DNA from: a virus
Length of the DNA stretch: 64,000 nt
IMG/VR virus record: IMGVR_UViG_3300049436_000052
Span: 201,433 to 265,432 of that record
Reading direction: 5' to 3' (one strand)
Shown piece after piece: positions 39,614 to 63,754 of the stretch (positions are counted from its first letter, which is position 1; every line of letters begins with the position of its first letter). The translations under genes were made by a program, and so were the position numbers. The notes under the pieces are model-generated. The model ran no database searches. It had not been told where the DNA came from and saw nothing but the letters and a program-made list of their open reading frames with translations.

Positions 39614-41440
39614 ATTATATTATAATTAATGAAACATATTACCACCTCTTAAATCAAATTCATCAAAAACAATCGTAAAATTTTCAGAAAATAATGAATC
39701 TAGTAAATTTTCTTTTAATTCTACTGTAAGATAATTATCAAAACTATCCATAAGATATGGATCAAAATCTATTTCAAGTTTCCAAAAAAAATTATTTACA
39801 AAAACAATTGGTTTCAATAGTTGAGATAACATTTTTTTTACTTATTTAACTAAAAAGCCAAACCAATTGCAATTCCAAGGATTAGACCACAGAATAAAAC
39901 AATTAATAGAAATTTGGCACTACTGTTTTCATTTGCCAAATAATATTTTTTAATTGCTTTTGGAACATCACTATTCCAATAAAAGATAGCATTAGATGCT
40001 TCTTCATAATGTTCTAATGTTTTATTCATTAAATCTTTTTGTGGGGTATTATAAGCACGATTTTCCATATTGTTTTTTATTTTAAATTAGTTAATAAATC
40101 TTTTGCAATTAAATACGCACAATTAACATTATGATTTATTTCATTTTATTATATTCTTCAGTTGTAGCATATAACCACAAAATTCGATATTCTTCTAAGG
40201 TTAATTCATATAAACTTTCTTTCTTAAATTTCTCAAAAATAACCTTTTTATTGTTTTGATCATTCCAATCCAATAAATAATAGTATGATGTGGAACTCAC
40301 TTGTGATTTATCTGCTAATGTTTTCATGTTTAATTTTCTTTTGTTTCTTAGATTCTCGATTAAATTTCTTTTCAGAAATTTCTACAAAACCAGTTAAATT
40401 GGGATTTTCAACAGATTTTCCAAATGCATCATAAAAAGAATCTGGAATGTTTTTGATATATTCTGAAATGTGTTGAACTTTTTTTATTAATTCACCAGTA
40501 TTCGAATTTTTGTAATATGTGTAAGTTGTTTTCATATTTTATTTTTAGAAATTTCAGTATTATGATATGCAATTTCAATATTATATTCATCAATTGATTT
40601 GTTAAGTTCACTTATTCTACTCTTGATAATAGAAATGCTTTTTTCGTGATATTCAACTAAAATATTTGATATATATTCAAAAAGTGTTGTCGATTCATTA
40701 ACAAAATCAGGGAAAGATAAAGAAAAAATAACTTTATCTATCTGGCCTTGTCTTGTAAAATTTTTAGATTTTTTTGTCATCAAATTATTATTATCGATTT
40801 TTTATGTTAAATTATATCTTTTTATTATAGTTTTTTATTACTTTTTATCTTTTATTAGTATTTATAGTCAGTTCTTTGATATTTGGTTGTTAAAAAAATT
40901 ATACCTTTTTAACGTAAAATCATAAAGGTCAACAATTTTAGAAACAAGACGTTAAATTAAAATTTAGTTAAATGTTATTATATTAATGTTATTTTATAAA
41001 AATTAATTTTAACGAATCAAAATAATAGTTTCAAATAAAAGCAATCCTAAATACGAAAGTTGATAGGATAGAGGATATGGAGTTTATCCAATACTCAACA
41101 ATGGTATAAAGAAATGATATTATATGTTGTTTCATACTCTTCTTTAAAATTTGGTATATCTTACACAAATAAATTAGAATAATTTAGATTACTATCTTTT
41201 TCATTAATATTTAAATATTGATCGGTAGATCTAAGATGCCAAGCAACAAAAACAATTCCCAATTCGTTGCAATAATCTCCTATCAAATTTTCAACAGATT
41301 CATGTAAATCTATACCAAAATGATTAATTTTTTTTCCATTTAATGGTTCAACCAATTTATTTAAATTAGTTATTATTTCACCAACAGTTATATTTTTTTG
41401 TTTTTCCATGATACTTTTTATTAAATTATTGACTACCCAA

Positions 41441-41493: not shown

Positions 41494-41611
41494 TTGTTAT
41501 TTAATTTAGAATCATTCTAAATGAAACCATTAAATAATGTTAATTTATTTATATTTTTTTGTTTTATCGATAATCATCTCTATTTTTGTAAATCTTATAA
41601 ATATAATAAAC

Positions 41612-44075
41612 ATGTTTAAAATTGAGAAATTAAATAATATTGATCAAACGTTTGACAAACAGTTATTACCAAATGGTTTTATTAGAAATAAATTTGTTGA
41701 TTTATTTTATATAACATTGATGACTGAGTTTAGCCGTTTATTTAATTATGGGGTAATTATTCCCACCACAACAATATTTACAAATACCTTAAAAGATAAT
41801 TAATAATCTAAATTAAGATGTTTAAGATTGAAAAATTAAATGACATTGATCAAATACTTGATGATTTGTTATTATCAAATGGTTTATTTAGATATAATTT
41901 TGTTGATATGGTTTCTGTAGAATTGATGGATGAAGTTGATTTTTTATTTAATCATGAGATAGGTATTTCTACCAAAATAATACTGAAAATATATTAGATG
42001 TTGAATAATAATTTAAAACAGATGTTTAAAATCGAGAAATTAAATAATATTGATCAAATACTTATTAATCATTTGCTACCATATAGTGTAATTAGAGATG
42101 AATTTTATATAATGTTAATGGGTGAGCTTAATTTTTTAGTTCTGAATGAGATAGATATTTATTCTATATGTATATATAAAAATACATTAAAAGATGAATG
42201 AAAGAATAAATCTATTAATTAGTAGAAAGTTATATGAACGATTTGAACTACAAGTATATGTTCTAAGAACTTACTTTGATAATGATATTGATCTTAGTTT
42301 AGATGATATTTTAACAGATATTTTATATTCCAAATTAAAAGATGATTTTGAAAATTTTGGACAAATATTAAATTTAGAAAATGATCAAAAATATAGATTT
42401 ATTATTTGAAAAAAATATATCTGAACAATTCAAAATGAATCCATATTTGTGGCTATATTCTGATAATGATATTGATTTTAAGTTAAAAAGTACTATATTT
42501 AGTTCTCTATTTTCTGAGATAAATATAATTGATAATCAATTTAATCAAATATTAAGTAAAATATTATCTTTATGAATCCGAAAAATAACTTTAACTTTAT
42601 TAATTTCCATATAACATTATTATTGTTTAAAAATTCGTTTGACGTTCAAATAATAGGTTTTGGTGAAATTATTAAGATAGATGTTTGCAATCCAGACGAA
42701 TATTCGCTTGATATTCATTTGTGCGAAACTATGGGAAACTTTTTTATATGAAAAAAATGGTTGGTAAGTTGTCTTTTAAATATTCTTTAACTTTAGAACT
42801 TCAAAAAATGCTGGAAATTGGTTTACATCATTTTGATGTTGGTTTTATTCGTCGTACAATTAATATAGGTATTACTGATGATGATATTGGTGTTGAAATC
42901 AGAAAAAATCCTAATACATTAAATGAACTTTCTGAATTATATATTTTAATTAATGATGTTTAATGGATAGAATTCTTGATATAAATTTGATAAATTTATT
43001 TAAAATCAAAGGATGTTATTCTCGACCAGATTTTATTAATGTGGATTTATTTCAATTAGAATATGAAGTTTGTTTGAGTCATTATATTTAAGATTTCAAT
43101 TAAATATATAATATAGTTTAACTATGGAAAAAGAAACATTGTTTTATGAATTCCTTGATGAAAAAATTATTATGTTGTTTAACATTAAAGGACTATATTC
43201 TGAACCCGATTTCATACCACCATTATATTCTGGTTTAGTGTCGAATGTTTGCCTAAATGAAGTTTACAAATCTTGTCTTGAACTTTATGAGGTTTGTTAT
43301 TAAATCTTAATTTACTGAAAATGAATAAAATAGAACTTAAGACATTAGATAATGTTTTAAAAATAATTGACAATCTATTATTTGATTATTTTAATAATGA
43401 TATTAGTGGAGAAATTAAGAATTCGTTTAATGAAAACATTTCAGAAATTTTATTAGGATTGGATAGTCTTTTTAAAGAAGTGGGTATTGATGAGATCACA
43501 TATATTTTTGAATGAACTTATCTTCAGATAACATGAAAACAATTTATTTATCATTGCAAAATGAGCATAGTAACTTTATAAATGAAATGAATGATGTTGA
43601 AAGGATATTTCAATTTATGATTGGTTATAACTTTATTAAATTATTTTTCGAATTAAAAGGAAATCTTAGTTTAGATCTTGAAGAATTAAATGATATTAAT
43701 TTTTAAATTAAAATATTATATATGGTAAATGTTTTTAGTAACAATGTTTTAAAGGCTATTGAAGAGGATTTAAATTCAAAATGTATCAGATTCCACATTT
43801 CTTCTAAAGCTTATGAAAGAGGTTATGTTGATGTAAATTTTGAGTTATTAATGATATTAAACGATGATTTTGAAAATATTTTAATGGGTGAGATTGTAAA
43901 TTAAGGAAATGTGAAAAATAAAATTTTTGAAGAAAACTTTCAACTATATTTTAATAGATTATATCAACTTGATGAACTAATTCCATTAGAATTAAGAATA
44001 CTTTTAAATGTATTGGAATTTAATAACCAATATCGGAGAGAATTTGATGATATAGTTTTTTTGTTATCTGATTGA
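41612..44075 (+). other. Tandem cluster of about 13 micro-ORFs (50-70 aa)
   Basis: Back-to-back ORFs, many with ATGA/TAATG overlaps, after a TATTTTTG promoter at 41581; first three start MFKIEKLN.IDQ. Confidence 0.7.
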
Positions 44076-44121
44076 TTTTTCATCATTAACCAACTTGTTA
44101 ATTTATTATGATAAAAGATTT

Positions 44122-44173
44122 TTAACTTTTTTTAACATAAACATTAAAACAAATTTTAATAATTGTCGTATAA
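44122..44173 (+). promoter_or_regulatory. ECF-type phage promoter (AAAAC variant)
   Basis: TTAAC-N5-TTAAC-N9-AAAAC-N16-CGTATAA. Confidence 0.7.
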
Positions 44174-44735
44174 ATAAATAAACTTAGAAATTTTAGGTTT
44201 AAATGCCTATAAAAAAATACAAGAATGGAAGATAAATTTTTTTATGTTTTTAAATCTGATCTTGGTACAAAAGAAAGTAAAATAAGAAATTTAAATAAAG
44301 AACTTTCATCTGCTTTATATTATAAATTAAGTGATTTAATACTTGGTACTATTTTTCAAAGTGTTGAAATTGCATTAACATTTGAAGAAGATGTTGTAAA
44401 TGATTTAGAATTGTGTACTTTTTAACTATAATAAATAAAATAACAATGAAAAACTGGAAGGAAGAGGCTCAAAAAATTTTGGATAAACATTTAACAACAA
44501 TGTTAAATAAATACCCAGAATCTTACAAAACATTAGAAGAAATGACAAAATTGCCTGAATATGAAATTATAATTAATGTAATGTTTGAATTTGCCAGATT
44601 GTACGCAAAAGAAGCTTTTGAAGCAGCTAGAAAATTGGTATTAAATAAAGGCAGTTTTGAAAGAAAAGACACTAATGAATGTTATATAAATATGTTTGAA
44701 ACATTTAACGATTTTTTAACTAATAATAAAATATC

Positions 44736-45053
44736 ATGAAAACAAAAAAATTATTTATTGTAATTTTTATAATCCTACTATACTCATTATTAGGATTATT
44801 TGGTTGTACAAAACCAGTTAAAGAAACTGTGGAAGATCCAACAGTAACCACTACAGTAAAACTTCAAGAATTGCCAAAAGATACTGTTGTGATTAGTGTT
44901 GATGATGACAAGCTTTATGTTTTTGATAAAGATAATAAAGTTATTTATGTTACAACGGGTGAAAATATAACAGGAAATGGGATGTTAATATTTTTGTTTA
45001 TATTTTTAGTATTCTTTCTTATAATATCAATATTTGCCAACATTAATCAATAA
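44736..45053 (+). CDS. Putative lipoprotein with C-terminal TM segment
   Basis: MKTKK + hydrophobic stretch + LFGC lipobox. Confidence 0.6.
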   Translation: MKTKKLFIVIFIILLYSLLGLFGCTKPVKETVEDPTVTTTVKLQELPKDTVVISVDDDKLYVFDKDNKVIYVTTGENITGNGMLIFLFIFLVFFLIISIFANINQ

Positions 45054-45631
45054 TTAAAAATTTTCGATTATGAAAACATTAAGAAGAGTTAGCACAAGTG
45101 AAAGACTTCCAACTAAAGAAGGGATTTATTTTGTTGTTAAATTAAACGGTATTATAGATACATTAGTTGCAATACCGAAAAATGAAAATAATAGAATTTG
45201 GTGGAAGCAAGATGTAGAATATTGGTATGAAGAAATTGAAAATTTAAATAATTTTGAATTTGTTATTCCACTACTTGAAGAATTAGGTTTTGTAAAAGGC
45301 GCTAAATATGAACATACAACAGGAACATATACATTAGATGGTGATTTATGTAGTGATGAAAATGGTGTATGTGAAACTGGAAGTGGAAATTATTTATGGG
45401 TTTACTTTAAAGGACTGTGTGCCAAATTAGTGAATAACGATTTTTGAACCTAGTAATAAATATTAAAATGAAAACCAATGACATGTTTTGTGAATTGTTT
45501 GATAAAGAATTAAAAACAGTTTGTATTGGAAAAGGATTTATGTGTTTTAATGAAATGCACTTTGAATTGGAGAATGAACTTTATTTAGATCTAGCTAGAT
45601 TTATGAGTAATTTAAATCAAGAAATATTAAT

Positions 45632-45934
45632 ATGAACATAAAAGAACGTTATAAATTAAACAAATCGTTAAAAGTTGGTGATGTTTGCATTTGCCCTTCT
45701 TGTGGAAGTAAATTTATAAAAACTAATTATCAACAAGCTTTCTGCAAAACCAAAAGTAAAACAAAATGCAAGGATAGATACTGGAATACCGTAACACCAA
45801 CTAAAAGAAATAACACAACCAGAATTTCTCCTGCTAATGCTGCGTGGATGAGTAGTAGAGAAAACAGATTTAATCCTGAAGATTATGAACATCCATTTAG
45901 TTGTGAAGGATTAGGACAGTGGATAGATGATTAA
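45632..45934 (+). CDS. Zinc-finger phage protein
   Basis: CPSCGSKF...QAFC...CKD pattern. Confidence 0.65.
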   Translation: MNIKERYKLNKSLKVGDVCICPSCGSKFIKTNYQQAFCKTKSKTKCKDRYWNTVTPTKRNNTTRISPANAAWMSSRENRFNPEDYEHPFSCEGLGQWIDD

Positions 45935-46580
45935 TTTACATACCAAATGAAAAGATTTAAAAAAGTTTTTATTGAATTAAAAATATATGAATAAAAACAT
46001 AAACACAATATTGACACAAAACACTATATTTTTGGTGGATGATTTATATAAATTCACACGTACTAATGTGGGTAATATATTTTTTGATGAAATTATGGAT
46101 GAAATAGATGATTTATATTATTTGTTTTTAGTAAATTCAATAAACGAATAAAATATCATAAAACTTTCATAAAATAAAAATCATGGAAAATTTGTTCAAC
46201 ATAATAATTAATAATTCTAAAGAAATATTTAAACATCAAATAGAATCACATCTTGAAATGTTTAGGAATAATTTGAAATTAATTGAGAAAACTAAAAGAG
46301 AATTATTTGATTCTTTTGAATTTCAGTTATCTCCAATGGAAAATTCTAATATACCAATATTTGATAATTTTCAACTAGAAGATAATAATCCCAAATCATT
46401 AAAAGATGTTCTTGAAAAGTATTGCAAAATAAACGATAGAGGGTATTATGAAAATAATAACGTTTCTTGTTGGTTATTAAAAAATTCATTAAATAATAGT
46501 GATTTGGTGGAAGTTTATCAAGGTAATAATCTTTTAGGGAATTTTACTAATATTAATGATTTGATAAGTTTTTTTGAAAA

Positions 46581-49500
46581 ATGATAAATAACAATATTTA
46601 TAAAAATTTAGATAATGTTTTACAGATAAACATTAATGTATTGGATGAATTAAATTTGGAACTTTATTGTGAACTTATTGATAATTTATATAATACTTCT
46701 GAAGATAGGGAACTTCGTATTGTGTTTAATTTTGTGGTTGAGTAATAAATGGAAAATCAGTTTTACGATAGAATTCAAAAATTTAGTTGGTTGTTTGATT
46801 ATGATATTGATCAGAAAATTTCAATAAATATAAAAAACATAATTTCTATTGAACTTAGATTAGAACTATATAAAGAATTAGGAAATTATTTTAGAATTAT
46901 GTTTAACGAAATAGAATGAATGATAAATTTTTAAATAAGGTTTATAGTGTTGATTGGCATTTAAATTCTGATCTTAATTACCCACTTTCAGGATATTTAC
47001 TTAATTTAGTTTATTCTGAACTTAAATCAGAACTCAATGAAGATTTAAATACTAATATTTATGATATATTTAACGAAATAATTAATTAAAAATAGGAGAT
47101 AAAAAAAAATGACTTATAATGTAAGCGGTAAAGCAAATTGGACTATTCAAGACACTCCAAAAACAAAAAAAACCAAAGTAGAAGACAAGGTAGAAGAAAA
47201 AACAAATGTGGATTACAAGCCATTTGATAAAGATTCTTTTGATAGATTGTTATCAAATGCTAAAATAGAATATGATCTAACACACTCAAAGAATTTGGGC
47301 GATATCTTAACACATTTGGAAAGAATTGATAATTTACTTAAAATTTAAAACATTATGAAAATATTATGGTTTCTAATCTTTATAATTATAGAACTAACCG
47401 TTATTTGGTTAATAGGCAGTTTCATTGCGATGGATATAAATCCTTTACATTGGTGGTTATTTACTGAAGCTAGTGGAAGAATTGCATCAGTACTAATTCT
47501 TCTTCTATTAATTGCTGGTAATGTTAAAGCACTAACCGAAGATTATTGAAACAACCATTAATGCTAAATCTTCTGAATTAGATAGAATTAGAGAAAGCAT
47601 AACAGTCGATTTATCTGATATGCTTTCTTATTTTCTTTATTGGAAATATACAGAAATGTTTAGAAATATTTTTAATGAATTCGATGAAATTGAAAATATG
47701 TTTAATATCATTAATATACCAGTTAGTGATATTGAATGTATTTTGGATTAATATATTAGAAAATTTGGTATAACAAAAACAATAAAATTTATGCTTCTAG
47801 GGCTTTTATTTCTATTATTGACATTATATTATATAAGTGTTATTATCGCATTAATAATTGGTGATTATCACTCAAAAAAAGAATTCTACTTTGATCTTAT
47901 TCCATTGTTTGGGTTGGTTCAAATATTTATTTTATTTATGAAAATAATGAAAAAATAATATTAACTTAGAATATGAATAAATTTAATATACAACAGTTTG
48001 ACATTAAAGTACATATTGTCGTTAATTTGTGGTTTAATTTTGACTATGAATTTAAATATAAACTTATATGTGAATTGGAAGATTGTTTAAAAATAACATC
48101 AATGGCGGAGCTTGCAAATCTTGGTAATGAAATTTCAAGAAAATATTAGAATGAATAAAATTTTTGATATAAATTTACATAATAAGATAATTAAAACGTT
48201 TGATTCTATTGAAAATGTAATTGAAAATGATTTTAACTATATCCTATGTGATGAATTGCGTGAACTCATTAGCATTGATAATCGTTTTGGATTGACTGAA
48301 TTAACAAGATCAATTATTGAATGTTTATAATATTCTTTCATAAAAAAATGTTATGGATAAGAAATTTGATGAAAATTTGCTTAATAATATATTTAATATA
48401 ACCAATTTTATTGAAGAAATTGCTAATAACATTCATACTAGATTACTGTTTAAAATTCGTAATATTTTTATCAATAATAACAATACTATTAAATTGAATG
48501 AATTAATGGGTGCGATTGATGAGAACAATTGATTTAACCAGAAATAATCAAATTCTGATGAATATACGAAACTTTGAAAGAAACTTGAATTCAAAACTAA
48601 ATAAGTTTATTTTTGAATTTGAAAATGACTATATTCGATATGATTTTCTTGTTGAACTCTTTAATATTAATATTGATATTGGTGAAGAATATGACTATAA
48701 TATAATTTGTAATGAATAGTTTCTACAATAAATTACTTAGTAAATTTAGTTATAAATATTATAGTGAATTGTTTGGGATTGATAATCTCAACGACAATTT
48801 GTTTTCATTTCTTCGAAATGAATTAGAAATAAACATGGAACTTTATGAGGAGATCGAAACGTTTAATTATAATGAATAGAAATAGGTTATATGATGATTT
48901 GTATAATTTTGTTAATTATAAATTTGATGATGAAATTTGGGATATTGCTTATCTAAATTTAGAAGATAAATTAAACTTATTTCTTCAAAATGTACTTGAT
49001 ATTAATAAAGAGTTATATAATTTAAATGAAAACTTTATTCTTGATGAATGATCAGTTTTATGATATTTTACTTAATAAATTTAACAAGAAGTTAGATTTT
49101 GAATTTAGCAATAAATTAGATAGAAAACTTAATAATGAATTATATCTTACGATTTGGCATGAATTAGATCTTGATGTTATGTACAATATGTTTAATCAAA
49201 GGACTAATTCTGCTTTTTAAAAAACAACATTAATTGTAATAAAATGAATAAATTACACACACCACTTTATAGTAAATTGATATCATTTAATGATCATAAA
49301 CTTGCTGTAGTGACTAAAGAAATTGATGCTGAGTTGTTTTTAGTTCTTTGGGATTTTTTTGAAATGGATGTTTATCATGATATGTTTACTGGTGATAATA
49401 ATTCAGCATTTGAAATAAAATAAGAAATGGAAAATGATATTAATGTTATTGGTGAGTCTGGACACGACTTTGTAGATAAATTATATAATTATACGAATGG

Positions 49501-50248
49501 TTTAAATTTAAATTCCTTTATTGATTTAAATTTATTTAAACATTTAGATATTTAGATTTTAATTTTGGAAATTTAAGCAATTTTAAAATATTCTCTAATG
49601 AACTTTCTGAACTATATATTGATACAAAAATTTAGTAATTAATTCTATTTATGAAACGTTTCTTAATCGAAAATGTTTATTTAAATCAAATAGATTCTGA
49701 TTTTTATATGGATTTTGAAATGAAATTTTTATTATCTCTTTGGTCAAAAGTTCATGATGAAATAAAATTAGATATATCTAATCAACAATATGAACTTTAT
49801 CTTGAAATTGAAAAAACATACGAAAATGATTAATAACAAAACATCTTTCGAACCTAGAAAACTTGGTAATAATGAAACTGTTAATGAAATCATCCCTATA
49901 CTTAATATGTTGCTTAATCCAAATCTATATCTTGAGTTAACTGGTAATATATATGTTGAGGTTAATATAGAATTAAAAAATTGTATTGATCTTTCATTAC
50001 ATTTATCTCATTAAATTATGATGAATAGAAATAGATTGTATGTTAAGTTATATAATGGATTAAATCTTAATTTTGATGATGAAATTAATCCTAAACTTGA
50101 TAATTTATTTAACACAAATTTATATGTTGAACTAAAACGACTGTTAACTATTAATTTATATGTTGAAGTTAATAGAGAATTAAAAGACTGTATTGATCTT
50201 TCGTTACTTTTTTATGTTTATATACGAACTTTCTTCAAGGATTTATAA
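46581..50248 (+). other. Second micro-ORF cluster (about 16 ORFs, interrupted by 47109-47960)
   Basis: Contiguous 50-75 aa N/L/E/D-rich ORFs, many below the 60-aa track cutoff. Confidence 0.65.
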
Positions 50249-50275
50249 AATTTATTATTACAATTTTTTTTGTTA

Positions 50276-50328
50276 TTAACATTTATTAACTAAATGCCTG
50301 AAACAAAACAATGATATTTTTCGTAGAA
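50276..50328 (+). promoter_or_regulatory. ECF-type phage promoter
   Basis: Motif with CGTAGAA -10. Confidence 0.75.
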
Positions 50329-50874
50329 CTAATATTATAAACAACAAAAATATCTCATGGAAATTATATTTGTCAATAAAAATCCTAATTTTACAATTGT
50401 ATGTGGATTAGATGAAATTATAAACGGTATTGAAATAACTACATTTGATCTTGCAAATAATCACAAAATTCTTAATCTGTTACATTTCATCTCTATGTAT
50501 GCCGAAAATGATGGTTCTGATAAACAGAAAAAATATGCATTTGATTTCTTTTGTTATTATATTTCTGCGTTTGATAGTGATAATAGTAAAAAGAAATTTG
50601 ATATTTTAAGTAAAAACCCAAAACTTCAAATATTATGTTCTGGGGAATTGCTAGGTAATTTGAAATCAAATTTTTAAACTTAATCACATGAAAAAAAATA
50701 CATTATACTATAAAAAAGAAACTGCCCGAAAAATGATGAATTTTCATGGCAAATTGCTTGCTTGGTCATTAGTTATTGCGGTTTTTATAGTAATTATTGC
50801 AACATTAAGTTAAGAATAAAAAGCGTCTATTGAAAATCCTTTAGAATATTATTTTTTAAAGGATTTTTTTTTCA

Positions 50875-50927
50875 TTAACATTATTTAACTAAATTATTGA
50901 AACATTTTATCCGATTTAAACGTATAA
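50875..50927 (+). promoter_or_regulatory. ECF-type phage promoter preceded by terminator hairpin
   Basis: Full motif; AAAATCCTTTA...TAAAGGATTTT upstream. Confidence 0.85.
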
Positions 50928-52020
50928 GAACTATATAAACAATTAAAATAAATAAGTATCATGAAAACATATCCACAATTCCCTGAAGATTGGAAAGATG
51001 CAAAACAAACTCTTTATAGAAATTTTTATTTGAAAAGTAGTGTTGATATTGAAATTCTAAAAGATTTGGTTAAAACTCATATTTCTGATAAGGGCAATAA
51101 TGGTGTTTTACGGGCAAGATTGTTAGGCATTCTCAATTCTTATTTTAGTAGAGCTAATGAACTTTTTTGGACAAAACACTATCATCCATATACATATAAA
51201 CTTATTTTATTTTGGAAACATACTGGAGAATGGTTTGCAAGAACTTTCAATACTTGTAAATTTCGTAATAATGTAGAATTATGTAATATTGCCTCCTCTG
51301 TGGTGGATGAAATCCTTGCTGAAGAAAAAAGTAAATAATAAAATAATAAATATCATGAACCCAAATAAACAAAAATGTCCATTTAAAGATTATGAAATAA
51401 TCAACTCTGAATCTTTTAAATTAAGATATCATTGTGTGGGATATTATGGTTATAGAAAACCAGATGAAATTGCTGAATATCCACACGAAACACATGTTTT
51501 TCAAAGTCATTTTGTAATAAAAATATTCAATTATTGTTTAAACTAATTAAATAAATAAACATCATGGAAACATCAAACAATTGGAAATTTAATATAAAGA
51601 TTAAACATCTTTTTACAAGCAAAACAACGCCTGAAGTAATAATAATCATATGCACTTCTTTAATTCAACAATTAAAATCATTGATTGAAAGTATTGAAAA
51701 ATCAAACATTGTTGAAGACGATAAATATTATTTAACTTCAAATCTTGAAGAGATTAAAGATGGTTTTCAATTTCTTCAAGAACTTGCAGATGGTTCAATT
51801 CCAGAAAATGAATGGGATGATTATTGTTTTGAGGGTGATTTCGAAAGTGAATTTAATGGTAATTTAACAACACTTTATGATCTTGCTGATTGTAAAATAG
51901 AATCAAAATCTGGTGATGATACTATTCAGGAAAAATTTCTTTGGATTGATTAATTAAAATAATTAAAATACATCTATTAAAAAAATCTCTTATAACTTAA
52001 TTTGTAAGGGATTTTTTTCA

Positions 52021-52073
52021 TTAACATTCTTTAACTAAATTATTGAAACAAATTATCTGGTTTGTTCGTATAA
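52021..52073 (+). promoter_or_regulatory. ECF-type phage promoter
   Basis: Full motif, N17. Confidence 0.85.
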
Positions 52074-52103
52074 GAAGTAATATAAACAATTAAAAAATAA
52101 GTT

Positions 52104-52304
52104 ATGGAAACATTTTATTATTCGATAAAAACGGCAAATAAATCTTGGAATGAAACCAAGCAACATGAAATTGAGTTTGATTCGTGGGAAAATTTTGGAA
52201 AGTTCTGTAATGGACTGTCAAAACATTTAAAAAAAGAAATTAGGGGATGCGAAACTTCTGGCTATAATAATCAGGGATCGTATTTTTATAAATTTTGGAC
52301 ATAG
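52104..52304 (+). pseudogene. Hypothetical gene interrupted near its 3' end by the TnpB element
   Basis: Matches paralog 38585..38944 up to GSYFY; continuation NVVTLPKKKINVL resumes at 53627. Confidence 0.75.
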
Positions 52305-53626
52305 TAGTAAAGTTTTTTTGTGAATGTTTCTCAATCAAAATGTAGCTGATTTACAAAAAAACTTGCAAATTGTAAAAGATAGTGTATCTTTACAAAAAAT
52401 TAGACTATTTACCAATAGATGAAAGTAATTCACAAATCATACAAGTTTAATATTGCTCCTGATAATGAGCAAAAAGAGCTCCTTGCAAAACATTTCGGAG
52501 CTTGCAGGTTTGTGTTTAATCGTTACTTGAATAATAGGAAAGAAAATTATTTAAATGATAAAACTTCCTTAAATTATTATGACAATGCTAACGATTTAAC
52601 TAATTTAAAAAAACAAAATGAATTTAATTGGTTAAAGGAAATTAATAGTCAATCATTACAATCTTCTTTAAGAAATTTAGATACTGCATACAATAAGTTT
52701 TTTAGAAAGCAAAGTAAATTTCCAAGATTTAAATCAAAGTATGATAGACAAAGTTTTACTATACCACAATCATTAAATGTTGAAGTAGATATGTTGTTTA
52801 TACCAAAATTTAAAGAAGGTATTAAAATAAATTTACATAGAGAAATTAAAGGTAAAATCTTGTTTGGTACAATATCCAAATCTACAACAGGTAAATATTA
52901 TGTAAGTATAACTTGCGAAATAGAATACACTCCTATTGAAAAAACAAATTCAAAAGTTGGTATTGATACTGGAATTAAGGATTTGGCAATATTATCTAAT
53001 GGTAAAACATATAAAAATATTAAAACACTTAAAACCAATTTAAAGAAAATAAAATATAACCAAAGACAATTATCTAAAAAAGCAAAAGGAAGCAATTCCA
53101 GATTAAGACAAAAATCAAAACTTGCAAAAGTACATGAAAAAGTAACCAATATTAGGAAAGACTATTTGCACAAAGTCACTACAGAAATAATCAAAAACCA
53201 CGATGTGATTTGTATTGAAGATTTAGCCGTAAAAAATATGATGAAAAATCATAAATTATCACAAGCATTTTCTGATGTTGCTTTAGGTACTTTTTATACA
53301 ATGTTAGAATATAAAGCTAATTGGAATGATAAGACAGTTGTTAAGATTGACAGATATTTTCCAAGTAGCAAAACCTGTAATGTTTGTAATTACATTAACC
53401 AGGATTTAACATTAGATATTAGGGAATGGACTTGTCCAGATTGTAATACAGTACATGATAGGGATTACAATGCAAGTTTAAATATATTAAAACAAGGATT
53501 AAATATATTATCTGGTTCAGGAATTGAGTCGGATATAAAACAAAAACGTAGTGAGGCGTTGCCATTAGGTGAGTCTATGACCTACGAAACCCAACCTATT
53601 GCTATTAGCGTAGGTGAGTAGTTCAC
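52290..53626 (+). mobile_element. Non-autonomous IS200/IS605-family (IS1341-type, tnpB-only) element
   Basis: Inserted after TTTAT, ends TTCAC, no target duplication, left-end hairpin AAGTTTTTTTGTGAAT/ATTTACAAAAAAACTT. Confidence 0.85.
52419..53621 (+). CDS. tnpB: RNA-guided endonuclease TnpB
   Basis: HTH N-terminus (FGACRFVFN), RuvC GIDTG, IEDL and DRDYNAS, zinc finger CNVC/CPDC. Confidence 0.95.
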   Translation: MKVIHKSYKFNIAPDNEQKELLAKHFGACRFVFNRYLNNRKENYLNDKTSLNYYDNANDLTNLKKQNEFNWLKEINSQSLQSSLRNLDTAYNKFFRKQSKFPRFKSKYDRQSFTIPQSLNVEVDMLFIPKFKEGIKINLHREIKGKILFGTISKSTTGKYYVSITCEIEYTPIEKTNSKVGIDTGIKDLAILSNGKTYKNIKTLKTNLKKIKYNQRQLSKKAKGSNSRLRQKSKLAKVHEKVTNIRKDYLHKVTTEIIKNHDVICIEDLAVKNMMKNHKLSQAFSDVALGTFYTMLEYKANWNDKTVVKIDRYFPSSKTCNVCNYINQDLTLDIREWTCPDCNTVHDRDYNASLNILKQGLNILSGSGIESDIKQKRSEALPLGESMTYETQPIAISVGE

Positions 53627-53654
53627 AATGTGGTTACTTTGCCAAAGAAAAAAA

Positions 53655-53707
53655 TTAACGTTCTTTAACTATAATAACGAAACATTTTTAATTAATTTTA
53701 CGTATAA
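53655..53707 (+). promoter_or_regulatory. ECF-type phage promoter
   Basis: Full motif, N17. Confidence 0.85.
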
Positions 53708-53714
53708 GTATATA

Positions 53715-53907
53715 CCCACTGCCTAAAAAGTAGATAAGCGAAACTTATTAAAGATATTTTAGGATGGTATAAAGAAAGTCCAATTCTTTCCTGTGGGTCG
53801 AATGCCGTTCGAATCGGCTCGTTGATTGAGGTTAGGTAAGTGACAAGGTTTAATTCCTTGCAAATTAGTTGATACTACAAACAATCTGGCAGCTTGGAAA
53901 GACAAGC
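53715..53907 (+). ncRNA. Putative structured RNA / 5' leader
   Basis: CCCAC/GTGGG multibranch domain, two T-arm-like hairpins, GCTTG-GAAAGA-CAAGC hairpin; starts right after promoter. Confidence 0.6.
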
Positions 53908-54516
53908 AAATTTTTTAAAATAAATTTAATTAACATTATAATGGAATTATTCACAGAAATTGAATTTAAAGTGTCAGAATTTGATAAAATTGATAAGGTT
54001 TTATATTTTTTGACCAATGAAGGTTGGGAAATTATAAATACCAGAGAATTTTCAATTATAAGACCAAACAAACCAAAAGAAATAACAGCAAAAAAATATA
54101 AATTTAGACGCACAATCTAATAATTTTTAGTTACAAAATCATTTTTAAAAAATGCATTATGGAAAATATAAACGTGAATAAAGAAGCTATTCTTAAGCGT
54201 ATTCAAAGACATGAAGAAAATATTAAAACATATATGTTAAAATTAAAAGAAAGTGAAACCGTTCTTGATAGTGAATATTACATTAAATATATTAGGGAAT
54301 TAGAATTAAGAAAAAATGAATTAGGTTTAGTTTTATCAACTTGTTTTGAATAAATTTAATTACCTAAAAACTGACCAAAAAGCTTGTTTTTATGCCGCTA
54401 ATCCTAAGAACGATATTTATTTATGGATTGCACCGAGAAATGTCTTAGATGTCGTTAAAATTGATAATTCAGATGTTCTTTCATAATTGATTGTTTATTG
54501 TTTATAATTGTTTTAA

Positions 54517-54548
54517 AATCCCTGAGATTAAATTTAGTTTCAGGGATT
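54517..54548 (+). terminator. Terminator hairpin, identical 32-bp copy at 57604-57635
   Basis: AATCCCTGAGATTAAATTTAGTTTCAGGGATT twice. Confidence 0.8.
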
Positions 54549-54642
54549 TTTTTTGTTCCACATAAAACATTATGTTAATATTTATTAAAAATTGTTTACT
54601 TTAACATTTATTTTTTAATTTTGCAAAAATAACATAGCTTAT

Positions 54643-55658
54643 ATGTTCGAAAATAGTTTTGATAGTGTGATTAATGATAATCTTAATTGTTCAGATATAG
54701 GTTTTCCGTTTGATTGTAATACTTTTCCATATAATAAACTTTTAAATTTATTATATGATGATATGGATGTAGAATTGAGTCAGCTAAATTTTAATATACT
54801 TATTCATTGTAGTTCTTTTTCTGATTAATTAATAAGATAATATGACAAATTTTGACAATAAACTACACCAATCAATAACATTTCCATATTTTGATTATAA
54901 TATCTTGCTTAATGATCAACTTATTCATTTCTTGTCTAACAATCTTTATATTGAGTTAAATGATTTAAATAATAACATATCTACTATTTTAATATGAAAT
55001 TACCTAATCCAGAATTTAATGAAGATCTTTTTAATAAATTATTTAGGATTTTCAACAATAAATTATTTGAAAATATACGAAATGAATATTTTCAAATCGT
55101 TGAAAGCAAATCAAATATTGAAATACAAACTGAAGTTAGATTTTCATTAGTGAAAGAATTTAAAATTGATCTACTAAACGAAATTTCTAAACTATTGTAA
55201 TTAATTGGTATATTCTTATGAAAATAGATTTTTATAACACAACTCAAGATGATTTTTATAACATAATTCAAGATAATTTGGATGATAATTTTCGTTTAAG
55301 ATTATTGTATGATATTACTGCATTATATTGTCCAAGCATTGGAGGTAACAAATTATCAAAGCCATTACACCGTGAACTTATAAATACATTTGATTTTATT
55401 AGACTTGAAATATCATTTAATAGGTTATTTGATGTTAGTTTTTAATAATAAAATAATATATAAATGAAATCTATTGAAATAATACTTTATGATAAATTAA
55501 ATGGTTTTGATAAAAATTTATGTAATGATCTTATTAATGGTTATGTTTTATCAATTAAAGGTGAATTAAGTAGTGAATTACACAATGAATTTTATTTTGA
55601 AACTAAACAACTTCTATTTTTTGAAACATTATCCCTTTTGAACTTACCAGGAAAATAA
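54643..55658 (+). other. Third micro-ORF cluster (5 ORFs)
   Basis: After TAATTTTG promoter at 54616; same size and composition as other clusters. Confidence 0.65.
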
Positions 55659-55667
55659 TAAATCCTT

Positions 55668-55720
55668 TTAACATTATTTAACTATGTTAAGGAAACATTT
55701 TAAAACGTTTAATCGTATAA
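55668..55720 (+). promoter_or_regulatory. ECF-type phage promoter
   Basis: Full motif. Confidence 0.85.
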
Positions 55721-56213
55721 GAACTATATAAACAATCTAAAACAATAACATTATGAAAGCAAAATCAAAAAAAATTAAATTTTGGAATCTTCCGAAAGAA
55801 ATAAAATTAATTAAATTTCTATTTGATGGTGAAAAAGATAATAAATATTTAGATATTGTGGAATCTTTTTCATGGTCAGCAAAAAAAGAAAAAAAGTATT
55901 ATAAAATCACCAATCAAATTGATGAACTTGAAGTTTTAGGTAATGGCTGGAGAATTTATTGTTGGTATGACATTAGTGGATATGATTATTGGGTAAAACA
56001 ACAAGAAGAACCTAATTACATTGAGGTTACAATAAGTTTCGATAAAAAGTCAATTTTAAAAAGCGAAATCGGAAATATTGAAAATGCCTTAAACGATATT
56101 CTTAATAAATGCAGAGAAATTGAAAATAAATATTTTAGGTAAAAATAATGTTAAGATAGGTAATTCTTTAAATAATGTCCCTTGTATAATAACCATATAA
56201 GGGATTTTTTTAT

Positions 56214-56266
56214 TTAACATTTTTTAACTATTTGTTCGAAACAAAACAATGAGTTTTTACATATAA
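56214..56266 (+). promoter_or_regulatory. ECF-type phage promoter (CATATAA variant)
   Basis: Motif with one -10 mismatch. Confidence 0.7.
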
Positions 56267-57725
56267 GTAATAAACAATATAAAACATAAGAAATATGAAA
56301 GCAATAAAAAAACAATCAATCATAATAAAGGTTTATGTGGCCTTTGCACAATTTCTAATTATCCCAAACATAAAAAAATTAACAAGGGATTTAGAACATA
56401 TTGAAAACGAATTGAAAAATGGTAAATGGTCGGATAAATTGCTACGAATTAAATTTTCTGAAAAGGATTTAGTATGTCCTCCTTATAGATATTATCTAAG
56501 TAAAGTTTCTGAAAATGAAAAAAAATCAGTAAAAGAATTCCATTTGAATCTTATTATTGAAGGGGTAAATAACCAAACAATTGAAATCTATTTTTATTAA
56601 AAATCGTTTCACATAAAACATAATAAAACTTTTGAGTAAGCTATAATTATAAAATAATCAACAAATGAAAAACTTAGAAAGAATAATCCAATTCTTATTG
56701 GAATACAAAATGAATGAGAAAACTGGATATAATATACATATTCAACATGCACCAGATTTAGATGTTACAACTAGTCATTGTTCTGATAATGGAATTACCT
56801 ACAAAGGACATCCATATTATTCAATTTTTAATGATATTTTAAAAACATATGAATCTGATTTTATATATCATGTAAAGAACAGTCAAGAAATTGATTGGGA
56901 AGGTTATTTAATAACTCCAATTCTAGGTTATATAATAAAAATAAACCTACTTTTTATTGATTATGGCACAAATAATGGTTTAGATTGGAATTATTCTATA
57001 ATTGGAATGATCAATTTGCCAAATGTGGATTATATTGCAAAGAATCATAATTTAGTTGAAAAAATAGTACAGCAAATATATTCGGATGAATCTATCTGGA
57101 AGCGAAATAAAAGAGAAAAAAATAAATTAGAAATTCATCCATATAAAAATATTTTTGGTAGAGAAATACAACCCACAAAAGGACTTAGGAAAAGAAAATC
57201 TAAAGCAAAACCTATTCCAAATTTATCATAAGTTAATTTTTGACATATGGAAGATACACATAAAACTAGGCAATATCTTAAAGAACTAAATGCAGTTTTT
57301 GTAGAAGATAAAATAATAGTAAGTCCAGCAATTATTAATAGTAAAATAGCCGTATTTACTCGAAAATATTATAAAAAAAGAAACAATAAAATTTGCTATG
57401 TTGATACAAACATAGTATTATTTAATGTTGAGTGGGATAAAACCAAAACACACAAAAACGTTTCAAACATCTATATTAATGATTGGAATAATACGTTTTT
57501 TAAAAATGAAATTACAAAAATTTCAAAAGAATATAAAGAGGAACTGATCGAAAAATACATTAAAATACATGTTAGTTAGTTGTTTATAATTGTTTATGCT
57601 AATAATCCCTGAGATTAAATTTAGTTTCAGGGATTAATTATTTTATATAATAGCACTTACATAAATATCGTTTTACATAATAATTTTTAATAAATTACTC
57701 CTAATAAAATATATTTATTACCTTT

Positions 57726-59685
57726 GTGAAAAAATATTCAATAATTAATCTTAATTTAAGTTTTATGCAATTACTATCAGGACTATCAGGTTTAACAGAA
57801 TTTGATTTATTTAATTTTAATTCTGATTTAAAAATTTGTCTTTGGACTGTTCTTTATAGTGAAATTAGAGGTAGTCTAAGTATAGAATTTAATGAACTTA
57901 ACAATAATATCTTTTTATAAATTTGTGACAACAATAGATAATAAACTTAGTATAAATCATTGGTCAATATTTTATCATACAAGAATTACTGAAAGTTATT
58001 TTTGGAATGTTCTTGATGATGAAGGTAAGAATGATTTAGCTATAGAACTTAAAGAGCTTAATATATTATTTTATGTAAATTTATGAAAACAATCGAACTT
58101 AATAATAAAAAGTATTATAAACTCCTAATAGACACACATAGCCTTTGGAGCGAAATTAAATATTGTTTTAATGATGAATATTTAAACCAAATTTATGACA
58201 TATGCAAAGATGAATTTGAGGGGTTGTGGGATGAACTTAAATTAGAATTGGATTATATATTATAACTAATGAATTGTAATGTTATGAAAGAAACAAATGT
58301 AGATGTTAATATAAATTTGGCCAACACTTTAAATAAAATTATAAAAGATATAAACTGTCAATATAATTTAAAACTTTGTATTGAACTTAATAATCTTCTA
58401 TTTATCGATTTATATCCTATGGCTAATGAATTACTTTATATAGATTTATGAAGAAAATATTAAATTCAAGACTAGTTCAAATTGGGGATGATTTTTATAA
58501 GGATCTTGCTAAAAAAATTGAAATTGAACTTCAGAAATTTCTATATAATCAACTCTTGTCTGATTTATATAGTGAATTTTATCCTGAGTCACCATTCGGA
58601 AATCTAAATTTATAAAATTTAAATAACAATGTTAACGTTTAATAAATTAATCGAAATAAAACATTATCAAAATGTTGAGTTCTGCAATAATTTCCATAGT
58701 GAGATTAAGACAGAAGTTTGGAATTTTCTATATAGAGAAATTAAATCAGAATTGCATGAAAATTTTGATAACGAATTTTATATAATATTTAGTGAAATAA
58801 TCAAATAAACCTTGTGTTATGTATGAAATAAATGTTAAGTTTATCACACATTGGTATGATAATATTAATATCTATGATATTTTTTATAGTAATCTTGATA
58901 ATGAACTTTGGGAATTTCTTAACGATAAAATTAATCTTGATTGCTATAGAGATTTCAAAGAACTTGATAGAGAATTAAGTTTTTATAGAAATTTATGAAA
59001 AACAATGGATGATAAACTCAATATATATTGCTATAGTTTTAATTCAGAATTTTGTGATAAAATTTATCACAAATGCGATGATAAACTTTTTAAAGAATTT
59101 ATACATATATTCAATAATGTGTTTACCGATACATGGAATATGCTTACTATAGAATTTATGTTATGAAAAAAACAAATAAAATTTTTATTAAAAATATAAA
59201 TAATACATTATTGGATATTGTGTCATTAGATTTAAATTATTCATGTGGTATAAATTTTTATATTGAACTTAAAGATAAATTATTTAATGATTTGTATCAT
59301 ACATCTAACGAAATCCAATTACTTTAAAATATGACAACACCACATAAAAAAATAGGTATTCAATTTGATAGAGATTTATATTGTGAACTCGCTGAGAATA
59401 ATCTATATGATAATCTTTGGAAATTTCTTTATAAAGAACTTACTAAAGATTTAAATATTGAACTTGATGTTTTTTCAGGAATAAATAAGGAACTTATAGA
59501 TTGTATTAATTTATAAATGAAAAAAACAATATTATTTAATATTATTTTTAATCGATATAATACTCAATTATTCGAAAACCCTCTTATTAAAAATAATGTA
59601 GATAATAAACTTTATGTAGAAATATTAAATATATGTTATGTTGAATTTTTCGAATTGTTTTATGAATTATATTATATTTGATTAA
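57726..59685 (+). other. Fourth micro-ORF cluster (about 11 ORFs)
   Basis: After TACCTTTG at 57719; repeated ..EL..EL.. and LW.FL patterns. Confidence 0.7.
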
Positions 59686-59734
59686 CATTCTTTAACTAAA
59701 ATACTGAAACATTAAATCAAATTTCAACGTATAA
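59682..59734 (+). promoter_or_regulatory. ECF-type phage promoter
   Basis: Full motif. Confidence 0.85.
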
Positions 59735-60242
59735 GTATTATATAAACAATTAACAACTAAAAAATATAATCATGGAAACAATAAAATTTGTTCAACTAAA
59801 AAATAATGTTATCGATAAAAAGAATAACATTAATTTGCCAAAAGATACTGATCTACTTTTTAAAGTTGATAGTAAAGGCAGATATTATGCAGCACAACCC
59901 GAAAACGAATTTTTTATCTGGATCTCATATAGAGATATTAAAAGCGAATCTTTTGAAACAAATCCTATAAATTAATCAAATAAAATCTTCTCTTATTAAC
60001 AAACAATTATAAAACTTTACAACTATGAAAAAAATTATAACATTCACAATCAACATTAACTTAGATAAAGTTAAATCTTATGTAGTTTTATTATCTTTTC
60101 CAGCTATTATCATAAGCACAATTGTTTATAATTGTATTATTCATGGAACAAATCTACAATTACTAATTTTGTAAAAACCCTTCTTCCAAATAATTTTTAA
60201 TCAAAATCCTTTATAAATATCTTATAGAGGATTTTTTTTATT

Positions 60243-60295
60243 TTAACTTTTATTAACTATAATATTGAAACATTTTAAAACAATATTTCGTATAA
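60243..60295 (+). promoter_or_regulatory. ECF-type phage promoter (near-identical to 61321-61373)
   Basis: Full motif; spacer sequence also shared. Confidence 0.85.
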
Positions 60296-60613
60296 GTATT
60301 ATATAAACAATTCTAAAAACTAAATTTATGGCACATATAAAAAACAAATATGTAACAAAGAAAGAAGTTGAAAAATACTTTAAAAATGTCTACTATTGGA
60401 ATTTAAACCCTAAAAAGTATGGTTCAGAACCGAATTGTCTTCCTTGTAAAATCGATTTTAAAAAAGATAAACCAGCAAAAAGACAAATTTGGAATGATCT
60501 TGTCGATTCATTAAAAAAAGATGGAACTATAAATCCAAATAGCAATTGGAATCAACCTAATTTCATTTCAAAGTAAATAATAACTTAATATAAACAATTA
60601 AAACAATATAATC

Positions 60614-61252
60614 ATGGAAACTCCAGTAAGAACAATCAATCACAGAAATTTCGAAATAGAAATTTATCACGATTCTAACAATGTTAATCCAAGTGAAGAT
60701 CAAAACGAAGACATTTTTTTGGTTTATGATCACAAAGATTTTAATATTGAGGTTAAAGGATTTAAACCAATAGACATTTATAGATATCTTCAAATAAAAG
60801 AACAATTAAAACTCCCATTCGTTGAATTAAATCATTACAATGATCTGATAGAAGAACTAAAAGAATATTCAGAATTTGATAAATACGAAATCTTCACAGT
60901 CTTTGCCTATATCCATTCTGGAATAGCTTTAAGCCTAAATACTAATAATTATCCATTTAATTGTCGATGGGATGTTTCTTCAAGTGGTTTTATCCTTGTA
61001 AAAAAAGACATTCAATGGAATAATGAATTAGAAGTTGTTGCAAATTCTTTAATTAAAGAATGGAATGATTGTTTATCTGGCAATGTTTATGGATTTGTTA
61101 TTAATTTTGATGATCAGGAAATTGATGCGGTTTGGAGATTTATAGGAGATATTGACAAATCAGGAATTATTGAAGATGCAAAAAGCCATATTGATTATAG
61201 AATCAGAAACAACCCTGAAAAATATGCAGAACAATTAAACTTGGAAATATAA
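60614..61252 (+). CDS. Conserved MGE hypothetical protein
   Basis: AYIHSGIALS...FNCRWD...GNVYGF motif. Confidence 0.7.
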   Translation: METPVRTINHRNFEIEIYHDSNNVNPSEDQNEDIFLVYDHKDFNIEVKGFKPIDIYRYLQIKEQLKLPFVELNHYNDLIEELKEYSEFDKYEIFTVFAYIHSGIALSLNTNNYPFNCRWDVSSSGFILVKKDIQWNNELEVVANSLIKEWNDCLSGNVYGFVINFDDQEIDAVWRFIGDIDKSGIIEDAKSHIDYRIRNNPEKYAEQLNLEI

Positions 61253-61403
61253 TAATAAAAGTATTTTTTATTTTTCAATCCCTTATATAAAAATCATGTA
61301 AAGGATTATTTATTTTTATTTTAACTTTTATTAACTATAATATCGAAACATTTTAAAACAATATTTCGTATTACACTATATAAACAATTTAAATTTATAA
61401 GTT

Positions 61404-61841
61404 ATGAAAACATATTTATTACAAAGAGCATCATTTAAAAATGGTAAAGATAAGAGTGGAAAGGGTATTGATACTATAATAAGTTTAGATTATATGGGTA
61501 GTTCTGAATTTGAATGGGGAGCATTGCCGAATTCTCTTAAAAATATCAGAAAAGATATTAATGATTATACTTATTTGGACGTACTTGTATCGGATAAGCT
61601 TATTACTGTTTTTTGTAAAGTTTCTCAAAAAAGTGATGTGGAGTTATATTTGATCAACCTTGCAAAAAATAATATGATATTAAAGGAATTTTCTGCATTT
61701 GATTCTTATATTAATAATGATGGATATTTCAAAGATAGGTTTGATTTCTGGTGGGATATTGATAATGATTTAATGTTTTGGAAGAAAAATCAGGAGTTTG
61801 AATTAAAATTTAAAACGATTATTACCACAAAACCATCTTAA
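61404..61841 (+). CDS. Conserved phage hypothetical protein
   Basis: DYMGSSEFEWGALP motif. Confidence 0.7.
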   Translation: MKTYLLQRASFKNGKDKSGKGIDTIISLDYMGSSEFEWGALPNSLKNIRKDINDYTYLDVLVSDKLITVFCKVSQKSDVELYLINLAKNNMILKEFSAFDSYINNDGYFKDRFDFWWDIDNDLMFWKKNQEFELKFKTIITTKPS

Positions 61842-62049
61842 TATGAAAACAAAAAAAATAAAATATATCTTTAACGGTAAAATTGTAACAGCCAAGATAA
61901 AAAATAATAAGGTTGTAAATACTGGCATAAAACCTAAAAAATAAAAAAGATATCTTGATTGTTTATATAAATTGTTTTCAAAATAATCCTTTTATAATTA
62001 TTCTATAAGAGGATTATTTGTTTTAAATATTATCATTTGACAAAAATTA

Positions 62050-62065
62050 TGTTCCACGTGGAACG
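62050..62065. other. parS-like site
   Basis: TGTTCCACGTGGAACG, 15/16 match to the palindrome at 63755. Confidence 0.7.
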
Positions 62066-62099
62066 TAAAATAAACTACTTCTAATAAATTTTATGATAT

Positions 62100-62152
62100 T
62101 TAACTTTTATTAACTAAATTCAAGAAACATTTTAAAGTCGTTTTACGTATAA
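62100..62152 (+). promoter_or_regulatory. ECF-type phage promoter
   Basis: Full motif. Confidence 0.85.
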
Positions 62153-62185
62153 CAAGTATATAAACAACAAAAAAACAATATAATC

Positions 62186-63397: not shown

Positions 63398-63580
63398 TTG
63401 TTTATATGAATACATTTTCTTTAATCCCTTATGTAAAATATATGTAGGGGATTAATTATTTTAAATAAAATACTTCTAAAAAATAACATTAAATAAATTT
63501 TATTTAATGAATTTAATTGGATTAATTACTTTTACCGAAATTTATAAAACAATTTTAGAAAACTTTAAAAAAATAATGAT

Positions 63581-63730: not shown

Positions 63731-63754
63731 TAATATATACCTTAAGATAAATTA

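Follow-up and report, generated by a model that had tools for sequence, protein, structure and literature searches.

A tandem array of minigenes in a 334-kb virus genome includes an expanded family of small acidic proteins built on a four-residue repeat

Large lytic phages carry clusters of small genes for the early takeover of the host, such as genes 37-60 of SPO1, the early small open reading frames (ORFs) of T4 and the pre-early genes of T5. In these clusters, genes for proteins of 40-100 amino acids (aa) without known homologs are packed into dense operons, which are read from host-polymerase promoters and lie near replication genes; the presumed targets of their products are host proteins. 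Phage blocks of this kind usually consist of mutually unrelated genes. Large eukaryotic viruses expand multigene families by tandem duplication, as in the 'genomic accordions' of poxviruses and the MGF families of African swine fever virus (ASFV). Here we describe an array of minigenes in a stretch of 64,000 nucleotides (nt), hereafter the window, which covers positions 201433-265432 of the metagenome-derived virus record IMGVR_UViG_3300049436_000052 (334,326 bp). The array has the dense operons, host-type promoters, nearby replication genes and presumed action on host proteins of the SPO1, T4 and T5 clusters, but about 50 of its genes are paralogs with a strict tetrad repeat, and none of these is common to other phages. 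It shares with the poxvirus and ASFV families a lineage-specific tandem expansion, nearest paralogs that are usually neighbours, and fast divergence, although the virus is a phage and its proteins are much smaller.

The record has a GC content of 25%, contains 14 tRNA genes and was rated as complete by CheckV. Our codon-based gene call gave 581 genes with a median length of 98 aa, and the density of small genes was highest at 240-280 kb of the genome, i.e., 39-79 kb in window coordinates. The first-pass annotation of this DNA had described some 45-50 small, often translationally coupled ORFs in four clusters. When ORFs were called down to small sizes, this count was upheld: the clusters, designated A to D (Table 1), contain 13, 18-19, 5 and 11 genes, that is, 47-48 plus-strand ORFs of 42-80 aa. 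These ORFs tile the strand with little overlap. Ten junctions between 41.5 and 59.7 kb are ATGA overlaps (gap of -4), and the other gaps are mostly 20 nt or less. By a codon log-likelihood trained on the 135 ORFs of at least 200 aa, the tiling ORFs scored about +0.2 per codon, similar to the long genes, while overlapping alternative ORFs scored negative. The three stop codons TAA, TAG and TGA occur in similar ratios across all size classes of ORFs. Stop-codon recoding was considered as the cause of the short ORFs and rejected, since reading TAG or TGA as a sense codon did not merge them into long genes. The minigenes are almost certainly real genes.

To compare the minigene products with one another, an all-against-all phmmer search was performed on the 285 small proteins of the genome. 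At E ≤ 1e-3, there were 99 matches between real proteins and 4 to shuffled decoys, and the real matches formed 22 seed clusters, seven of which converged on overlapping sets of members upon profile iteration. With E ≤ 1e-3 as the cutoff, a single iterated profile gathered 50 members genome-wide and recovered not one of 1140 decoys, made by shuffling each of the 285 proteins three times and by reversing it. Homology beyond shuffled sequences is thus observed, and the genome very probably contains one family of about 50 genes, roughly 9% of all its genes. The window contains 16 of the 50 members, 14 of which are located between 41.6 and 59.7 kb, and ten more ORFs of that region are tied to the family by sub-profiles only (24 in total). 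The best-conserved block, with 17 members, follows after the end of the window (window-equivalent 70.5-76.7 kb), and remote clusters are located at 16.2-18.1, 53.6-55.4 and 296.5 kb of the genome. Two additional copies, skipped by the gene caller, were found at L001:6675-6860 (profile E 3.5e-6) and L001:10119-10361 (1.2e-4), the latter embedded in a longer open stretch; such copies suggest ongoing birth and decay within the family.

The earlier proposal that all 45-50 ORFs of the four clusters form one family was therefore correct as to the existence of a divergent paralog family and too wide as to its extent, one family accounting for about half of these ORFs. A stricter profile was made from the 34 members outside 41.6-59.7 kb only and compared with block- or phase-shuffled decoys in which the tetrads were kept. 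It gave more than 8 bits for 27% of the ORFs of the region and for 5.5% of these decoys. Clusters C and D were clearly related to the family, and cluster B partly. Cluster A, which had been counted among the members, could not be separated from the tetrad-preserving or reversed controls (mean 2.5 bits). In hhalign comparisons of the unassigned ORFs with the core alignment, probabilities did not exceed 28%, and cluster A equalled its reversed controls; it contains instead separate small paralog groups. Some ORFs of the clusters are of membrane type or unrelated. Among the isolated ORFs that had been listed with the family, those at 17350 and 63581 are members and that at 39626 is linked by a sub-profile, while for the small ORFs at 524, 15916 and 44225 membership is not supported. 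The other minigenes, among them the whole of cluster A, would be singletons or further small paralog groups of like composition in the same genomic niche. The whole plus-strand block extends over about 35 kb, from about 41.6 kb past the end of the window to about 76.7 kb, and holds about 80 genuine minigenes in short operons.

The proteins had been described as acidic, rich in N, L, E, D and F and as having a hydrophobic residue at about every fourth position, and composition, charge and periodicity all agree with this description. They contain 11.7% N, 13.8% L, 10.9% I, 7.9% E, 7.8% F and 7.0% D, and about 46% of the residues of the minigene proteins are hydrophobic. The family has a mean net charge of -4.6 and the region one of -3.0, against -0.4 for the other small genes. 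The hydrophobic power at a period of 3.8-4.0 residues is 0.49-0.62, as compared with 0.25 in shuffled sequences (z 7.5-10), 0.31-0.33 in the other small genes of the genome and 0.26-0.28 in its long genes. Its peak lies at 3.8-4.2, with no power at 3.5, the period of canonical heptad coiled coils. In the family profile, the hydrophobic columns are 9, 13, 17 and 21, followed by 35, 39, 43, 47, 51, 55, 59 and 63, each of which is 76-100% hydrophobic. The two runs are separated by a 13-residue hydrophobic linker, and an acidic column directly precedes most of the hydrophobic columns. The profile thus amounts to four and then seven xxEL tetrads with an exact spacing of 4, headed by the N-terminal signature F-x3-L-x3-L-x-D-E-L-I. 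In the member at 63581, the tetrad is visible even at the DNA level, as a 12-nt tandem repeat.

The helical character that had been claimed for these proteins is in line with AlphaFold2 models, which predict two helices. For the protein encoded at 49026, the helices span residues 3-27 and 33-63, with a predicted local distance difference test score (pLDDT) of 80; for a core member, they span residues 3-26 and 28-67 (pLDDT 84.5, with 92-98 in the second helix). About 50 genes genome-wide would encode one lineage-specific family of acidic proteins of 50-78 aa, with 4 + 7 xxEL tetrads in two predicted helices.

It could be argued that there is no single family, and that the AT bias of unrelated small early genes, through codons for N, L, I, F, E and D, together with generic helical amphipathicity, mimics both similarity and periodicity. 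Cluster A and about half of the ORFs are indeed not tied to the profile, the low hhalign probabilities of the unassigned groups point the same way, block-shuffled decoys exceed the background, and some periodicity at 3.6-3.8 is also present in the other small genes of the genome. Against this stand the 50 real proteins found without a single decoy, the position-by-position conservation of the N-terminal motif, the linker position and the C-terminal tetrads, and real scores that lie above those of phase- and block-preserving shuffles. The periodicity power is also about twice that of the other small genes. We regard this explanation as unlikely.

The distribution of the members on the genome was compared with their similarity. 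The best paralog of a member was located in the same cluster for 27 of the 50 members, where 8 were expected and at most 18 were obtained in 2000 permutations. Because the best paralog is mostly found in the same cluster, the result fits growth of the family by local tandem duplication. The ratio of nonsynonymous to synonymous substitution rates (dN/dS; Nei-Gojobori) between family paralogs was about 0.3-1.0 at dS of 0.25-2, these values being rough owing to saturation and AT bias. Two pairs of paralogs outside the family gave lower ratios of 0.28 (54346-54486 and 59772-59975) and 0.17 (38585-38944 and 52104-52304). The high ratios support the rapid diversification that had been proposed for these genes. 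After expansion by tandem duplication, the family would have diverged fast, keeping its reading frames, the hydrophobic tetrad positions and the preceding acidic residue, while most other positions would change freely.

An exhaustive profile search of 1.84 billion representative proteins returned 36 matches, and all of the small ones were proteins of this genome itself. A collection of 15 billion proteins contained nine family proteins, each a singleton cluster at 90% identity and all from this one contig. The family was absent from the contigs that share the neighbouring gene for a 145-aa protein (24 loci, including a 184-kb phage). The best large relative (G001) is only distant, with 39 of the 581 genes shared at a median identity of 36%, and a terminase search detected no close relative; one locus at 51% was without the family. 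As judged from the large collections and from the nearest viral contigs, the family is lineage-specific, the nearest available relatives being very distant. No match to any known family was found in Pfam, in PHROG or in the search of 1.84 billion proteins, and anti-defence proteins as a class are defined by function. In detail, the best E-value was 0.026 in a Pfam scan of 34 members, 0.013 in a PHROG scan of 10 proteins and 0.38 in a profile search of the sequences in the PDB, none of them significant. A Foldseek search of the PDB gave no match, and the ESM Atlas gave no usable feature match (the Atlas model of one member had a pLDDT of 0.52).

To gain information on how the minigenes may be transcribed, the sequences upstream of the operons were analysed. 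Three clusters had been said to start at host-type TAnnTTTG promoters, and such a sequence is indeed present 23, 19 and 38 nt before the ATGs at 41612, 54643 and 57765 in clusters A, C and D, that of cluster D being a -7 box only. The full Bacteroidota-type motif, TTG-N17-21-TAnnTTTG, was found 13-23 nt before the ATG at clusters A and C, at the member at 64435, just past the window, and at the remote cluster at 18 kb of the genome. The sequence TTACCTTTGTGAAAAAA of the -7 box of cluster D also precedes the member at 64435. Thus, the full motif stands at four of the seven minigene operon starts and at 2.8% of all genes, its frequency at the operon starts being far above chance (about 2e-5 by our own binomial estimate), while the bare TAnnTTTG 8-mer shows no enrichment in the window (139 occurrences against 139.6 expected). 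Intrinsic terminators ahead of clusters C and D are identical hairpins; both lie in a repeated segment of about 60 nt (TTGTTTATAATTGTTTA...), and variants of the hairpin occur at 63.4 kb and at three places outside the window (64.2, 67.8 and 68.9 kb).

A different, highly conserved element of 56 nt is present in 11 plus-strand copies, eight in the window (50887-63858) and three in L001 (1548-4821). All 11 copies precede an interspersed gene outside the family, ten of them at 8-22 nt from its ATG and often with a hairpin terminator upstream. This element is probably a phage-specific promoter or regulatory site of a second temporal class. Copies also precede 52104 and 59772, one gene from each of the two non-family paralog pairs. 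The minigene operons would thus stand behind terminators and Bacteroidota-type -33/-7 promoters, and the interspersed larger genes would carry the 56-nt element. The two promoter classes suggest two temporal classes of genes, with the minigenes in the class read by the host polymerase, presumably the early one. An RNA polymerase beta-prime domain was not detected in the phage with the one Pfam model used, and the unmodified host RNA polymerase would most likely read the minigenes early in infection. Given host-type promoters at the operon starts, early expression is plausible, and we consider transcription of the minigenes by the host polymerase at that stage somewhat more probable than not. 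In a jumbo phage that probably infects Bacteroidota, two promoter classes of this kind would provide a testable map of early transcription.

The interpretation that we prefer, with a probability of about 0.55 as a whole, is that the array consists of real minigenes, includes one family of about 50 members and serves as an early host-interaction panel. With so many hydrophobic residues, acidic amphipathic helices probably self-associate or bind partners. The amphipathic helices of the family would bind other proteins, whether these are host factors, defence factors or fellow members, and would together form a diversified panel. By their copy number, their speed of divergence and their restriction to one lineage, the genes resemble the virus multigene families that are aimed at host factors; both the tandem clustering of nearest paralogs and the lineage restriction are found here, though the latter is judged against very distant relatives. 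Antagonism of the host or of its defences by the family proteins, for which a role as decoys or inhibitors had been suggested, is a tentative proposal by analogy and less likely than not. In a bolder version, about 50 helical modules of period 4.0, an undescribed structural type, would pair mutually or with the stalk of the DUF6745 protein described below and so form a combinatorial library offering many anti-defence surfaces. The array would in that case be the phage counterpart to the immune-evasion multigene families of large eukaryotic viruses; we consider this quite unlikely.

Several points weigh against the preferred interpretation. The tetrad pattern itself contributes to the profile score, as seen from block-shuffled decoys that outscore generic small genes, and the profile also matches the unrelated tetrad linkers of DUF6745 proteins with E-values down to 3e-15; convergence is therefore possible for some of the weak members. 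The helices are folded back in one of the two structure models and extended in the other. Selection is measurable only between saturated paralogs in an AT-biased genome, because no related genome carries the family. Finally, divergent phage RNA polymerases could escape the one Pfam model that was used. Among lineage-specific expansions of small, probably early, phage proteins, the array stands out by its scale and its strict period-4 repeat, a single phage devoting such a share of its genes to one family seen nowhere else. If the members were diversified binders of host or defence proteins, they would represent a clear case of gene-family expansion as phage counter-defence and would also supply a new small helical scaffold.

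Outside this genome, the profile matches are mostly proteins of 300-720 aa, in which long tetrad arrays (xNEL, xSEL, xSQL) connect a conserved N-terminal domain to a DUF6745 domain (PF20530); a few are other tetrad-repeat proteins without the DUF6745 domain. The DUF6745 linkers have the same four-residue register, x-x-[E/Q/K]-L, as the family and are nearly its sole outside matches. They run over 20-60 tetrads, however, and the family has only 4 + 7 with a fixed linker between them; the micro-proteins also lack both the DUF6745 domain and the conserved N-terminal domain, and PF20530 was not found in the Pfam scan of members. The family aligns to the linkers with the exact spacing of 4, which is a resemblance of pattern and does not amount to membership. 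The phage has a DUF6745 protein of its own (428 aa; L041:907-2193, window-equivalent 65612-66898), encoded between minigene clusters, with a linker of about 18 (G/R/W)(D/N)QV tetrads. In four other phage contigs (L042-L045; xxEL or xxQL linkers), DUF6745 genes are located in early-type regions at the start of small-gene operons, and the small neighbours of these genes gave no match to the family. A literature search on DUF6745 and on paralog expansions in phages found nothing relevant.

From these results, the family might be viewed as free-standing copies of the DUF6745 linker module that act with the DUF6745 protein, for instance by pairing with its tetrad stalk. The predominance of DUF6745 linkers among the outside matches in 1.84 billion proteins, the phage's own DUF6745 gene within the array, and the early-type regions full of small genes around DUF6745 genes elsewhere would all agree with this. 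The phage's own linker, however, is of the xxQV type, which the family profile does not match, the small genes beside the four other DUF6745 genes do not belong to the family, and a shared repeat pattern alone can explain the match, so that this view is very unlikely. The link is better read as a shared type of repeat, for which a functional tie is possible but unsupported. The DUF6745 tetrad linker nevertheless emerges as a recognisable, phage-associated sequence type.

A role of the minigene proteins in phage structure or assembly, for example as coiled-coil proteins of a scaffold, decoration or compartment, was also considered as an alternative to host-directed action. In VIA-align comparisons, the model of the core member resembled segments of long coiled coils (Z 6.6), and that of the 49026 protein resembled generic helical hairpins, the best being PHIST helices with Z 7.3 and a root-mean-square deviation of 1.8 over 64 residues; both values are below the meaningful level for helices. 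The high proportion of hydrophobic residues suggests oligomerisation, and a homodimer prediction for the 49026 protein gave a score of 0.00, a verdict neither way. A structural gene normally has one copy, is conserved among relatives and belongs to a late operon, whereas here about 50 fast-diverging copies are absent from all relatives and have host-type promoters upstream, which makes a structural role highly improbable.

The remaining alternatives were already disfavoured. Ribosomally synthesized and post-translationally modified peptide (RiPP) precursors can form large paralog sets with a conserved leader, as in the prochlorosins, and the array likewise contains many paralogous peptides of 50-75 aa with a common N-terminal motif; but the C-terminal part is equally conserved and helical with no hypervariable core, Cys (1.4%), Ser and Thr are not enriched, there is no cleavage motif of the Gly-Gly type, and a radical S-adenosylmethionine enzyme was searched for in the genome and not found, so that RiPP precursors are scarcely credible. 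It is just as hard to believe that the minigenes are chance ORFs, fragments of longer genes that use a different code or decayed pseudogenes, for all the AT-richness of the sequence, the dN/dS near 1 in some pairs and the few copies overlooked by the gene caller: stops are frequent in DNA of 25% GC, yet one strand is tiled by about 80 ORFs of about 60 codons whose codon usage is of the coding type, a tiling therefore taken as reflecting selection, recoding of TAG or TGA has little effect, and the similarity of the ORFs shows in the protein translations.

Table 1. Minigene clusters, family members and transcription signals, in window coordinates
Feature	Position	Strand	Remarks
Isolated family member	17350-17544	-	Profile E 1.1e-5
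Small acidic gene	39626-39832	-	Linked to 42194/42381 sub-profile
Bacteroidota-type promoter (TTG, 19 nt, TATTTTTG)	41559-41588	+	23 nt before ATG at 41612; divergent intergenic region
Cluster A, 13 small acidic genes	41612-44075	+	Paralog trio 41612, 41818, 41998/42022; pairs 42194/42381 and 42963/43124
Family member	45444-45635	+	Profile E 2.8e-9; ATGA overlaps with both neighbouring genes
Cluster B, 18-19 small genes	46581-50248	+	Profile members 46581, 49026, 50018
Cluster B, ORFs linked by sub-profiles	46749, 46916, 48712, 48845, 49244, 49651, 49790	+	
Cluster B, remainder outside the family assignment, including two hydrophobic, membrane-like ORFs	47355, 47791	+	
56-nt promoter-like element (AACTA..GAAAC..CGTATAAG..TATATAAACAA)	50887-50942 (first copy)	+	Other copies in the window at 52033, 55680, 59694, 60255, 61333, 62112, 63801
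Intrinsic terminator hairpin (CCCTGAGATTAAATTTAGTTTCAGGG + T run)	54515-54550	+	Ahead of cluster C
Bacteroidota-type promoter (TTG, 21 nt, TAATTTTG)	54592-54623	+	19 nt before ATG at 54643
Cluster C, 5 minigenes	54643-55658	+	Members 54643, 55218, 55464; 54842 near threshold
Identical terminator hairpin, second copy	57603-57636	+	Ahead of cluster D
-7 box TACCTTTG	57719-57726	+	38 nt before ATG at 57765
Cluster D, 11 minigenes	57726-59681	+	Members 58448, 58629, 58819, 59005, 59133, 59331, 59517; 57726 linked
Family member, 49 aa	63581-63730	+	12-nt tandem repeat in coding sequence, 63638-63697, 5 copies

The contig is a jumbo phage with Bacteroidota-type signals, and it probably infects Bacteroidota. 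The window encodes a Dda-like helicase, whose top matches among GenBank phages are crAss-like phages of Bacteroides at about 32% identity, and megablast revealed no near match of the region among GenBank phages. It also encodes a CCA-adding enzyme, a TnpB and an LPD29/30 protein. The last of these, of 403 aa (62186-63397), has LPD30 and LPD29 domains, which are modules of polyvalent proteins; it has the 56-nt element upstream and borders the minigene block. Pfam and PHROG scans of the mid-size neighbouring genes gave nothing informative.

The TnpB/IS605 OrfB gene (400 aa) encodes a helix-turn-helix domain, an OrfB domain and a Cas12f-like zinc domain. A non-coding stretch of 247 nt, richer in GC, lies 3' of the gene and could contain its guide RNA; gene and stretch together occupy 52419-53868, and a second copy is located on the minus strand at window-equivalent 84714. 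Within the minigene block, the gene at 45632-45934 encodes a basic protein of 100 aa with a CxxC...C...C motif, for which four PHROGs of unknown function gave matches (best E 2.6e-16). No other gene of the block has relatives in other phages. An ATGA overlap joins the gene to a member of the family.

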